Shown piece by piece: positions 4,629 through 64,000 of a stretch of DNA of 64,000 bases. Every line of letters starts with the position of its first letter. Position 1 is the stretch's first letter. The stretch spans positions 1,408,001 through 1,472,000 of the forward strand of contig CM000154.2 of assembly GCA_000004695.1 (NCBI GenBank). Direction: 5' to 3'. The notes beneath the pieces are model-generated. The model saw only the letters and a program-made list of their open reading frames with translations. It did not search any database and was not told the origin of the DNA. The stretch is from Dictyostelium discoideum (lineage: Eukaryota). The position numbers and the translations under genes are program-made.

Positions 4629-7658
<3,030 letters not shown>

Positions 7659-10811: not shown

Positions 10812-11514
10812 TTAGGCTTTAACAGCGAAAACTCTTTGTGGGAAGTTGGTGGCAGTTTTGGAAACTCTTAAGGTGACAACTTTAGATTGTTTGTTGGTGA
10901 GACGTCTTCTGATGGCTCTAGTCTTTTTGTAACGGAGATCAGTTGGGATCTTGCTTGATGATTTTTTAGAATAGACAGCACGGAGATGGTTCTTTTGAGT
11001 TTGGTTGAAAACAGTTAAAACACGGGCAATAGCTTTACGGACGGTACCGATTTTGGCTAATTTGCTTGGGTTTGGTGATTTAACTTGGGCAACTCTTAAA
11101 CTTGAGAGCTCAGTTCTGAGTTCCTTGAGGTGTTCAAGTAATTGAGTCTTGTTTTTGGTTCTGAGTTCAAAAGCTTTAGTTTTTTCGGCTAAATTATTAT
11201 TATTTTTATTTTATTATGAAACATGTTAGAAATAATCATTCATAGTTTCGTTTCTATAAATATTGTGATAAATGATAGATGAACGATGTGGTGGTATGTG
11301 ATAAGTGATAACTGATAACTGATAACTGATATTTTGCTGTTTGATATTTAATCCTAAATCCAAAAAATATTAATCATTAATCCATAATCATTAATCCAAA
11401 TCTATTATCAATCCAAACTATTTTATATTTATTTTATTTTTTTTTTCATTCTTAATTGTATGTGGAAATATTTATATGTATAGGATTCGTGTAATATGTA
11501 GTGACATACCCATG
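10812..11514 (-). CDS. rpl35: 60S ribosomal protein L35 (uL29), 126 aa. Exons 11514..11511 (ATG+G) and 11188..10812.
   Basis: M|AEKTKAFELRTKNKTQLLEHLKELRTELSSLRVAQVKSPNPSKLAKIGTVRKAIARVLTVFNQTQKNHLRAVYSKKSSSKIPTDLRYKKTRAIRRRLTNKQSKVVTLRVSKTATNFPQRVFAVKA. Clear L35 homology (ELR.K...L...L..L..EL..LRV.KVTGG..SKL.KI..VRKSIARVLTVINQ.Q...LR..Y..KKY.PLDLR.KKTRA.RRRL...E). The tiny first exon ATG G has a GTATGT donor and a tttag acceptor. A micro first exon is common for ribosomal protein genes in this genome. Confidence 0.8.
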
Positions 11515-14191: not shown

Positions 14192-18430
<4,239 letters not shown>

Positions 18431-43162: not shown

Positions 43163-44225
43163 TTATTTTATTTAACTTAATAAAAACAAATTTTTTTTTT
43201 TTTTTTATATAGTCGATCAGTTGAAAATTTGATTAAACTATATTAAAAAAATTCTCTTTAAAAACAAATAAAAAAAATTAAAAATAAAAAAGGAAAAAGA
43301 GGAGGTAATAAAATTTGATTACCAAAAAAAAAAAAAAAAAAATATAACAAAATAAAAAAAATAAAATAGTATAAAAAAATATAATAAAATAAAAATAAAA
43401 AAAAAAAATAAAAAAAATCAATACACTTTTTTATTTTTACTCTATATTTTTTTTTTTTTTTTTTTTATTTTTATTTTTATTTTTTTTCTTTATTTTTACC
43501 TTTTATGGACGAAGAAGAAATTAGAATGAGGTTTGGTTTTAAAATGAAAAAAAAAAAAAAGCCAAATTTTGAATTTGAAAAAAACTTTTTTTTTTTTTTT
43601 TTTTTTGAATTTTTTTTTTTTTTTTTTTTTTTTATTTTATTTATTTATATAAAACAAAAATATCGATCTGATAACAATTTTAAAGTAAAGTTGTGGAGGG
43701 TGTAGGTACAACGAATCTTATTTAAAAAAAATAAATAAAAAAATAATTAAAATAAAATAAAAAATAAAATAAAAAAAACACAAGCCCTGGTTATACTTTT
43801 TTTTTGTTTTTTTTTGTTTTTTTTTGAATTTCAAACAAAATTAAACAGAGAAATTATTATCTATATATCTAAATTTTAAAATAAAAAAATAAAATTCAAA
43901 AAATAGATATAAAAAGTAAATCAATAAAGATAATAATTGCAGTAATAAATTAAAAAATAAAAAAAAAAAAAAAAAAAAGTAAAAAAAAGAATATAGATAA
44001 AAGATAATAAAAGTGAAAAAAAAAAAAATAAAAAAAATAAAAAAAATAAATAAAAAAAATAATAATCATTATATATACATACGTGAATATATATTTATAT
44101 ATATATATATATTTTTTGTTGTTGTAAAATGTTTTTGTGTGTTTTTGTGGGAAGTGTAACGGATATAAAAATTTTTATGTGATTTTTTTTTTTAATTTTG
44201 TTATTTTATTTTTTAATTTTTTTTT

Positions 44226-49553: not shown

Positions 49554-50844
49554 ATAATAAAAAACATATTATAATTATTAGAAATAGTTCTTACCTTGAA
49601 ATTTGTCTAAATTTAAATTACTATCAATACCATATTCTATATTAATATTCTCCATTTTAATCGGAATATTTAATTTAAACAAATAATTTTATTTTTTTAA
49701 AAAAAAAAAAAAAATAAAAAAAAATAATAGATAAATATTTTAATATTAATAAGTTTGAATGTAATAATTTCTTTTTCTCTGTTGTGTAAATGAATAATTT
49801 TTATATGTAGAACAAATTTTAACAGATAACAATAAATTATAATGATATAATTTGTGGTAGTGATTTAAATAAAAAAATTAAAATAAAAAAAAAAATTAAT
49901 ATAATGAAAAAAAAAAAAATATAAAAAAAAATAATAATAATAATTAAAATTAAAATGAGAAAAACACACACTAACACAGTTCGAAAATAACCTAATTGTA
50001 TTATCATGTAATATTTTTAGTTTTTTTTTTTTTTTTTGTTATTATTATTAATAATTAAAAAACCAATTATTTTTTTTTTTTTTTTTTTTTTTTTTTCTAT
50101 TAAAATCGATCGACAAAAATATACACCCACATTTAAGTGTGTTTTTTTTTTTTATTGTGATTTTCTGTTGTTGTTTTTTTTTTATGGTAAGAAACATTTT
50201 ACACAATCCAAAAAAAAAAAAAATAAAAAAAAAATAAAAAAAATAAAAAAATAATAAAAAAAAAAAAGAATAACAACAACAATAGTTGTTTTTTTGTATT
50301 TTATAATTTTTTTTTTCTAATAATATTTTTTTTTTTTTTTTTTAAATGAATTAACTCAATAGATTAAAAAACAAATATATCCATTAAATAAATAGAATAT
50401 TAAAAATAAAAGAAATTACTTAATTTGTAAAAAAAGAATGGAATTTGGGATGATTAAAAAAAAAAAAATTTATTTTTATATTTTTTTTTATATTTATTTT
50501 TACACAATCCAAAATGATTTGGTTTCAATCTTACAAAAAAAAAAAAAAATTGTATATATGAGGAAGTAAAAAAAAAAAAAATGATTTGTAAAATTTATTA
50601 AACTGTCGAATTGATTTATTCATATTATTGGTGATTTTATACAATTGAAAATAAATAAATAATTAAATCAATAAATAAATAATAAAAAAAAAAAAAAAAT
50701 TAATTTTCAATTCAAATTTAAATTGATTGCACAAAAAAAAAAAAAAAAATTCCATATAATTATTTTATTATGTTTTAATTTTTTTTAAAAAACTTTATCG
50801 TTTTTTTTTGTGTCATGTTTTTTTTCTTTAATTATTTTAATAAT

Positions 50845-51030
50845 GTGGGGGGTGTTCGAGTATTGATTGGGTGGATCATATTAATCGATCATGAGAACAG
50901 AGGATCTATAGCCACTCACCCTTTAAATACTCAAAAGTCTCCAAATGATTTTCAACAAAAGTTTTCATTGTCAACTTACTCCCGTAGGACATCGACTAAA
51001 CTTTGTGCGACATATAAATCTTTGTTTCTT
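50845..51030 (-). ncRNA. Candidate structured small RNA gene, family unassigned. The strand and the ends are uncertain.
   Basis: This is a roughly 180-bp island of about 40% G+C (GTGGGGGGTGTTCGAGTATTGATTGGGTGGATCATATTAATCGATCATGAGAACAGAGGATCTATAGCCACTCACCC...GTCAACTTACTCCCGTAGGACATCGACTAAACTTTGTGCGAC) inside a roughly 85% A+T intergenic region. The only ORF over it (50815..51216) is hydrophobic low-complexity with atypical codons such as GGG, GTG, CGA. Several complementary segments (GGGTGG/CCACTCACCC, GATCAT...ATGATC) could form stems. A perfect match to the Dictyostelium ncRNA upstream element (A/T)CCCA(C/T)AA lies on the minus strand at 51088..51095 (plus strand ttatgggt). That is about 60-90 nt upstream of the island if the RNA is minus-strand. 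Confidence 0.3.
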
Positions 51031-51572
51031 CTTTATCTGTTTTTTAAAAGTGAAATGAAAAAAATTTTAATATATAACACTAGTAAACAATATATTATGG
51101 GTCATAAAAATTTTTTTTTTTTTTTTTTTTTCGTTTTTCGTTTTTTCATTTTTTTTTTTTTTTTGACAATTTACAAAATAAATTACCGGTCTATTGTTGT
51201 CAATCCAGACCAATAGTAATTTCAATTGTAATTAATTATAATAAATATAACAATTATAATTATAATTTCAATTCTAAACTCTTTGTAACCTGGTTTATTT
51301 ACTTTTTTTTTTTTTTTTTTTTTTTGATACTACAACAACAACTTTACAAATTTACAATTTAATTTAAAAATTCCTTTAAATATGTTATAATATATAAATT
51401 TTTTTTTTTTTTTATTATTTTTTTTTTTTATTTTTTTTTTATAATGTTACAATGAACAATTTTTATTATATTTTTATATTTTATTTATTTTTTATTATTA
51501 TTTAATTAAAAATTGTTTTCTTATTCTTTTTAATCTTTGCTACTATTGCTTTTTTTTTTTTTATGTATTAAA

Positions 51573-62618: not shown

Positions 62619-64000
62619 ATGGTTAATTTCACAATCGATCAAATTCGTGCCATTATGGACCGTCGTGAAAATATCAGAAATATGTCTGTTATTGCTCATG
62701 TCGATCACGGTAAAACCACTTTATCAGATTCTTTAATCCAAAGAGCTGGTATTATTGCCGATAAAGTTTCTGGTGATATGAGATATATGTCATGTCGTGC
62801 TGATGAACAAGAGCGTGGTATCACCATTAAATCTTCATCTGTATCACTTCACTTCGAAATGCCAAAGGAAGACAAATTACCAGCTGGTTGTACTTCACAC
62901 GAATTTTTAATCAATCTTATCGATTCCCCAGGTCACGTTGATTTCAGTTCAGAAGTAACTGCTGCCCTCCGTGTTACTGATGGTGCTTTAGTCGTTATCG
63001 ATTGCGTCGAAGGTGTTTGCGTACAAACCGAAACTGTATTACGTCAAGCCGTCGCTGAACGTATCAAACCAGTCTTATTCGTCAACAAAGTCGATCGTTT
63101 CTTATTAGAACTCCAATTAAACACTGAAGAAGCTTATCTCTCTTTCCGTAGAGCTATTGAATCCGTCAATGTCATTGTTGGTAACACTGAAGATAAGGAA
63201 TTCGGTGATGTCACTGTATCCCCAGAAAAAGGTACCGTCGCTTTCGGTTCTGGTCTCCACGGTTGGGGTTTCACCTTAGGTCGTTTCGCTAAATTATACG
63301 CTGCTAAATTTGGTGTCCCAGAAGATAAATTAATGGGTCGTTTATGGGGTGACAGCTATTTCGATGCTACCGCCAAGAAATGGACTTCCAATCCACAATC
63401 TGCCGATGGTAAAGCCTTACCAAGAGCTTTCTGTCAATTCGTTCTCGAACCAATCTACCAATTAACCAGAGCCATCGTTGATGAAGATGCCGTCAAACTC
63501 GAAAAGATGATGAAGACTCTCCAAATCACTTTAGCCCCAGAAGATGCTGAAATCAAAGGTAAACAATTAGTTAAAGCCGTCATGAGAAAATTCCTTCCAG
63601 CCGCCGATGCTATTTTATCTATGATTGTCACCCATTTACCATCACCATTAGTTGCCCAAAAGTACCGTTGTGCCAATCTCTATGAAGGTCCAATGGACGA
63701 TGAATGTGCCGTCGCCATTCAAAAATGTGATCCAAACGGTCCATTAATGATGTACGTATCAAAGATGGTTCCAACCTCTGATAAAGGTCGTTTCTATGCT
63801 TTCGGTCGTGTCTTCTCAGGTATCATCCGTACCGGTCAAAAGGTCAGAATTATGGGTGTCAACTACGTCCCAGGTAAGAAAGACGATTTATTCTTAAAAT
63901 CCATCCAACGTACCGTTCTTATGATGGGTAGAAAGACTGAACAAATTGAAGATTGTCCATGTGGTAACATTGTTGGTTTAGTCGGTGTCGATCAATTCCT
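62619..64000 (+). CDS. efbA: Elongation factor 2 (EF-2), N-terminal 460 residues. The CDS continues past the window end.
   Basis: [77 protein letters not shown]...[46 protein letters not shown]...[13 protein letters not shown].... Colinear with eukaryotic EF-2 (G1-G4 GTPase motifs). G+C content is markedly higher and codon bias is strong (GGT, CGT, ATC, TTC), as expected of a highly expressed gene. Confidence 0.95.

Follow-up and report, generated by a model that had tools for sequence, protein, structure and literature searches.

A G+C-rich island in a 64,000-nt stretch of the Dictyostelium discoideum genome (referred to here as the window) very probably represents a minus-strand gene that is transcribed independently and encodes a box H/ACA snoRNA guiding two pseudouridines, a reading to which we assign a probability of roughly 0.8. 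Both predicted target uridines are located near the catalytic center of the large ribosomal subunit (LSU) and are known pseudouridine sites in yeast or human. Judged from the sequence, box H/ACA is the most likely class for the putative transcript, an assignment that rests on its anatomy and on both of its guide pockets.

The composition profile shows a G+C content of 0.30-0.39 over 50800-51049, compared to 0.04-0.18 in the surrounding spacer. This bears out an earlier examination of the letters of the window (the sequence-only reading), which had described a G+C-rich island in an A+T-rich spacer. The island sits between two minus-strand genes. To follow it in other genomes, syntenic regions were retrieved with the neighboring vWA-UBC protein and Lis1 as anchors, resulting in a seven-genome set that consists of the window, two assemblies labeled D. 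discoideum, D. cf. discoideum, D. citrinum, D. firmibasis, and D. dimigraforme. Across the six other genomes, the island is 97-99% identical, whereas its flanks are unalignable or far less conserved. In three relatives, the identity of the island amounts to 97.7-98.9%, while the flanking protein there is only 81-93% identical, and the island is also found in D. firmibasis and D. dimigraforme. On the basis of this alignment, the block appears to be under purifying selection. The nearest assembly, GCA_054859355 (labeled D. discoideum), is approximately 92% identical to the window over 9.7 kb, and the others are less similar; the Lis1 exon in the window is 100% identical to the cluster containing DDB_G0288375. 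Outside this set, D. purpureum and two paralogous loci, reached by synteny via the vWA-UBC protein, revealed no shared neighborhood and no homologue, and synteny via Lis1 into P. violaceum led to a different neighborhood with no DUSE.

In all seven genomes, the conserved block extends from GAUAAAG (51037) through CGAACA plus 3 nt, with a mean column identity of 97%, and it reaches about 25 nt farther 5' than the G+C-rich part, to 51037. Its 3' edge reads ...CUCGAACA, in which ACA occupies 50855-50853, and the sequences diverge directly beyond this point, the bases after ACA being CCC, CUC, AUC, or ACC depending on the genome. Conservation that ends at ACA is what the 3' end of an H/ACA snoRNA would produce.

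Upstream of the block, the minus strand carries an exact match to the DUSE consensus (A/T)CCCA(C/T)AA, with 57 nt between its 3' end and the conserved RNA block. The sequence-only reading was correct in reporting an exact box on this strand upstream of the island, but the box is located at 51095-51102 and not at 51088-51095. The distance between the DUSE and an internal anchor equals 63-68 nt in 7/7 genomes, although the intervening sequence diverges. The published position of the DUSE is approximately 60 nt upstream of the ncRNA transcription start, and the element also drives Dictyostelium snRNA genes (PMC7919456, PMC3188802). The box and its spacing in the window thus correspond to the (A/T)CCCA(C/T)AA sequence at about 60 nt that characterizes DUSE-dependent ncRNA genes, counted from a putative transcription start. 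From the two edges of the conserved block, one 57 nt downstream of the DUSE and the other at ACA, we infer a minus-strand RNA of approximately 188 nt, spanning 51037..50850. A structured small-RNA gene on this strand with a DUSE about 60 nt upstream, as proposed from the letters of the window, is supported by conservation, promoter geometry, and fold.

The DUSE motif alone is not enriched in the window, with 5 matches compared to 9.2 expected, and its weight here derives from the conservation of box and spacing in seven genomes rather than from motif frequency. The other exact matches are located at 5691-5698 (+), 10836-10843 (-), 44145-44152 (-), and 63850-63857 (-). None of these four has a G+C-rich non-coding island 60 nt downstream, and from their sequence context they look like chance occurrences; the match at 63850 sits in G+C-rich, apparently coding sequence. 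The TATA-like sequence that had been suggested between box and island could be located as well (51065-51076), but it is weak evidence, given that the spacer is A+T-rich throughout.

Features of the candidate snoRNA gene and its promoter. The window coordinate of RNA position p is 51038-p.
Feature	Window coordinates	RNA positions	Strand	Remarks
DUSE promoter box ACCCATAA	51095..51102		minus	exact consensus match; invariant in 7 genomes
TATA-like element TATATATTAAAA	51065..51076		minus	about -39 to -28; read from sequence, partly conserved
Candidate H/ACA snoRNA, ~188 nt	51037..50850		minus	ends placed at the conservation edges
5' hairpin	50942..51024	14-96	minus	minimum-free-energy and constrained folds
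5' pocket, 5' strand AUAUGUCGC	51007..51015	23-31	minus	invariant; 25-31 predicted to pair with 26S GCGACGU
5' pocket, 3' strand UGAA	50951..50954	84-87	minus	invariant; predicted to pair with 26S UUCA
Hinge with H-like box AGACUU	50935..50940	98-103	minus	AGA invariant
3' hairpin	50856..50934	104-182	minus	basal stem 104-112 pairs with 174-182
Invariant apical domain of 3' hairpin, 46 nt	50876..50921	117-162	minus	no substitution in 7 genomes
3' pocket, 5' strand GGGUGA	50916..50921	117-122	minus	invariant; GGGUG predicted to pair with 26S CACCC
3' pocket, 3' strand CCAAUC	50865..50870	168-173	minus	invariant; CAAUC predicted to pair with 26S GAUUG
Box ACA	50853..50855	183-185	minus	invariant

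In minimum-free-energy and constrained folds, the RNA adopts a hairpin-AGA hinge-hairpin-ACA architecture, preceded by a 13-nt leader that is conserved. The short hinge (GAGACU) reads AGA(C/U)U(U/G/A) over the seven genomes and takes the canonical form ANANNA only in D. firmibasis. All substitutions in the 5' hairpin are structure-neutral across the set. U79C and U80C affect four consecutive U's paired with three A's, where only the bulge shifts, A36G and A69G yield G-U pairs, and A53G occupies the N position in a loop of the C(UNCG)G type. D. dimigraforme has A-U instead of G108-C178, which is compensatory, U-A instead of U105-G181, and U-G instead of the upper-stem pair U124-A166. This amounts to one compensatory pair and four pair-keeping changes (three to G-U, one G-U to A-U). 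Standard pairs are formed in 97.8% of the cells over the seven genomes, compared to 35-55% after a displacement of the 3' partners by 1-3 columns. The mutual complementarity that the sequence-only reading had seen around GGGTGG also holds, as GGGUG and CACCC are complementary and paired in the minimum-free-energy fold.

The covariation in the seven-genome alignment is not significant, as 198/500 shuffles do as well as the single compensatory pair, and the folding energy is no better than that of shuffled sequences on both strands (z-scores of -0.14 to -0.55). In addition, Rfam covariance models gave no match at gathering thresholds in the whole window and no match at an E value of ≤10 within 50700-51200, including SNORA21, snR10, snoR74, SNORA68, and the DdR families. 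A covariance-model match and a folding energy better than shuffles were among the checks proposed earlier for an RNA gene at this position. Both came out negative, yet the element is clearly functional, and these two criteria are too strict for a divergent H/ACA snoRNA.

The internal loops of the two hairpins contain the predicted guide sequences. In both pockets, the first guide pair lies 14 nt upstream of the box (U84 to AGA and C169 to ACA), within the 14-16 nt that characterize box H/ACA guides, and the pairing with the target comprises 4+7 bp for the 5' pocket and 5+5 bp for the 3' pocket. Within the 3' pocket, bases 112-116 vary in 3/7 genomes, while the adjacent guide 117-122 and the opposite 168-173 never do, which points to a pocket closed by GUGG (123-126)/CCAC (164-167). 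An initial model of this pocket, UAAA/AAUC (4+4), was dropped in view of the interspecies variation in its 5' strand. The retained model leaves A122 and C168, one guide base per side at the top, unpaired. Moreover, it needs the GUGG/CCAC register and not the GGGUG/CACCC pairing of the minimum-free-energy fold, a register that was chosen after the complementarity had been seen.

Targets were searched for in six contigs with complete SSU, 5.8S, and LSU genes, which served as target rDNA units and stem from metagenomic eukaryotes, not from Dictyostelium. In 6/6 units, each pocket scores highest at its predicted target, a conserved position in LSU domain V that does not change from unit to unit, and shuffled pockets equal the target score in 1.2-4.4% of trials. 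When any upper stem of ≥4 bp and box distances of 13-16 nt were admitted in an unbiased search over 137 U sites conserved across the units, the same two sites came out, with shuffles matching in 2.7% and 3.3%. The six units come from a scan of metagenome contigs for both target strings at the spacing that we assume between them, which yielded at least 120 eukaryotic LSU contigs. One of the rDNA units, Ga0335077_10006604, carries a group I intron (Rfam RF00028, 79.7 bits; L043 8173-8528, minus strand) inside its SSU rRNA gene, which is unrelated to the snoRNA.

The target of the 5' pocket, UUCA[U]AGCGACGU, is located in helix 89 of 25S/28S domain V (5'-UUCA-[U]A-GCGACGU-3'), whereas the target of the 3' pocket, 5'-GAUUG-[U]U-CACCC-3', lies in the A loop (helix 92). 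The A-loop site is yeast 25S Ψ2923, which is guided by the 3' hairpin of snR10. It is likewise chicken 28S-3955, which is listed with snR10, plant snoR74, and human ACA21 and has its guide in the 3' hairpin. Counting by offset places it at human 4470, which adjoins Um4468 and Gm4469. In human 28S rRNA, the helix 89 site is Ψ4393; its guide is U68/SNORA68, and GCGUUCAUAGCGACG is the published substrate. In D. discoideum 26S rRNA, Um3254 and Gm3255 have been mapped, and the published CD25 duplex shows rRNA GGAUUGUUCACC. Based on this sequence and the adjoining Um3254 and Gm3255, the D. discoideum A-loop target is predicted to be U3256. A distance of 77 nt to the A-loop site downstream puts the predicted helix 89 target at approximately U3179; it would be the U in UUCAUAGCGAC / UUCAUAGCGACG, from UUCAUAGCGACGU, where the Dictyostelium sequence is assumed and the A loop alone is confirmed. 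A search of the literature turned up no Ψ map of Dictyostelium rRNA, and a motif scan of all dictyostelid loci for a second A-loop guide gave only chance matches inside coding regions.

In the mechanism we propose, the DUSE at about -65 to -58 and the TATA-like element at about -39 to -28 would start transcription near 51037, and the 3' end would probably be trimmed to 3 nt past ACA, near 50850. The RNA would then assemble with dyskerin, Nop10, Nhp2, and Gar1 as its presumed partners, and the internal loop of each hairpin would act as a pseudouridylation pocket. The 5' pocket would pair with 26S helix 89 and direct modification of about U3179, and the 3' pocket would pair with the A loop and direct modification of U3256.

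This predicted guide shares features with several known RNAs. As predicted for the window RNA, snR10, SNORA21 (ACA21), and snoR74 are H/ACA RNAs in which the 3' hairpin guides the A-loop pseudouridine, and the total pairing is equal, being 5+5 bp in the window RNA and 6+4 in chicken. Vertebrate ACA21 also aims its 5' hairpin at helix 89, where the 5' target of the window RNA lies 8 nt upstream of the ACA21 5' target (4393-equivalent versus 4401). In contrast, the 5' hairpin of snR10 is a processing element, whereas that of the window RNA is a predicted guide, and vertebrate ACA21 is intronic, whereas the window gene has its own DUSE promoter. The three RNAs have no detectable covariance-model similarity to the window RNA, in which, moreover, the last position of the H box is not A. 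Human SNORA68 (U68) guides the same helix 89 uridine, Ψ4393 in GCGUUCA[U]AGCGACG; it gave no Rfam match, and in the window RNA, the helix 89 and A-loop guides share one RNA.

In D. discoideum itself, sno18 (Rfam DdR18) belongs to the same organism group and RNA class but has a different sequence, no DdR family matching the window. Identity with sno18 was rejected, as the published sno18 primers are absent from the RNA by inspection. According to a 2019 paper, no box H/ACA snoRNA other than sno18 had been identified in D. discoideum, and a 2022 paper still counts one. The sequence-only reading had listed snoRNAs among the possible classes, which the H/ACA anatomy and the guide pockets support, and had considered a lineage-specific RNA of unassigned family, which turns out to be too pessimistic given that anatomy and both pockets assign the RNA to the box H/ACA guides.

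The apical domain of the 3' hairpin is more conserved than guide function needs. RNA positions 117-162 are 100% invariant in the seven genomes, which is unusual for the apical part of guide snoRNAs, and they hold a U2-like string. We tentatively consider, as a possibility with clearly less than even odds, that the RNA guides two pseudouridines in the peptidyl-transferase region and that its apical domain additionally has a second sequence-specific function peculiar to Dictyostelia. Possible examples are pairing with a Dictyostelium-specific pre-rRNA spacer, comparable to the snR10 5' hairpin, or the binding of another RNA or protein. It is rather unlikely that the gene encodes a dual-function or non-guide H/ACA-class RNA in which the apical domain has the main role and pseudouridylation is secondary or absent. 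Such an RNA might act in pre-rRNA processing or chaperoning, as the snR10 5' hairpin and snR30/U17 do, in localization, or as a protein-binding module. Besides the invariant domain, this reading draws on the leader, which is likewise conserved, and on snR10, which joins guiding with a processing element. However, antisense matches of ≥8 nt between the apical domain and conserved rRNA are not in excess, and the guide pockets are conserved exactly as expected of working guides. The snR30 m1/m2 motifs, in the form that we take them to have, are absent by inspection, and snR30/U17 was rejected as an identity on the same ground. A second role of this kind adds to the guide explanation and does not replace it.

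It is improbable that the island is not an RNA gene at all but a cis-regulatory DNA block, the 3' UTR of the small upstream gene, or a short ORF. The location between two minus-strand genes speaks for this reading, but the island begins >500 bp past the stop of the upstream ORF and is preceded at a fixed spacing by a conserved DUSE of its own, supporting the earlier view that it is not the UTR of a flanking gene. In addition, the edges of conservation coincide with the DUSE-predicted start and the ACA box, unlike those of an enhancer or UTR. With respect to a short ORF, the sequence-only reading had seen no credible one, and this needs amending: a low-complexity ATG-to-stop ORF of 133 aa (50815-51216, plus strand) spans the island, antisense across the snoRNA gene and its promoter. 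Nevertheless, its translation has no homologue and no candidates in a collection of 5.8 billion proteins, and 1-nt indels in D. citrinum and D. firmibasis would shift its frame, which rules out a coding reading of the island. The ORF could be miscalled as a gene.

Least probable of all is a divergent spliceosomal-type snRNA or variant (U2-, U4-, or U6-like), which would share the DUSE with the snRNA genes of Dictyostelium and in which CUCUGUUCU...AUUAAUAU presumably resembles the region before and within U2 stem-loop IIa, but the U2-like pieces occur in permuted order relative to U2, no branch-point recognition sequence or other invariant snRNA box is found, no snRNA covariance model matches at an E value of ≤10, and the two ACUUUUG(U/A) Sm-like tracts are substituted between species (ACUCUUG, ACUUCUG, ACUGUUG). 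The short resemblances to U2, U4, and U6 pointed out earlier are therefore unsupported. A complementarity to U6, comprising 6+3+4 bp and two bulges, was considered a chance-level match, and telomerase RNA was rejected, as the C-rich run after ACA is not conserved. Class I RNAs measure approximately 50 to 60 nt, possess a terminal stem, and share a conserved 11-12-nt motif that includes CCUUACAGC (PMC7919456, PMC3188802). Similar to the snRNAs, they share with the window gene the (A/T)CCCA(C/T)AA box about 60 nt from the transcription start, but membership was rejected, as 188 nt is too long and the CCUUACAGC-containing motif is absent on direct reading.

The box H/ACA snoRNA gene proposed here is unannotated and belongs to a known RNA class rather than to a new one. 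Because recent dictyostelid annotations depend on Rfam models alone, they would miss it. It is a useful annotation without conceptual surprise, which provides a concrete candidate guide for two pseudouridines in the catalytic region of the ribosome, one of them adjoining Um3254 and Gm3255. It also suggests a recipe for finding further members of the family, which combines a conserved DUSE with a G+C island, an ACA where conservation ends, and a match between pocket and rRNA.

In D. purpureum, a second candidate emerged from this recipe. There, L010 (GL871002.1) contains a DUSE-linked H/ACA-like RNA at 16668-16889 on the minus strand, upstream of the orthologous RhoGEF gene. The locus shows TCCCATAA at 16889-16882 and a G+C island, followed by a hairpin, AGAACA, a second hairpin, and ACAUUU. 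This syntenic RNA has no significant sequence similarity to the window RNA, and its guide differs. DUSE promoters would drive at least the H/ACA snoRNA gene of the window and apparently a second one in D. purpureum. The 3' pocket of the D. purpureum RNA matches LSU AGACAGGU[U]AGUUUUACCC with 5+8 bp (13 bp) in 6/6 rDNA units. This target is a further conserved site in LSU domain V, 52 nt downstream of the A-loop site, which we take by offset to be the position of yeast Ψ2975. That the target search yields a sensible site on a second, unrelated candidate provides an independent check of the method.
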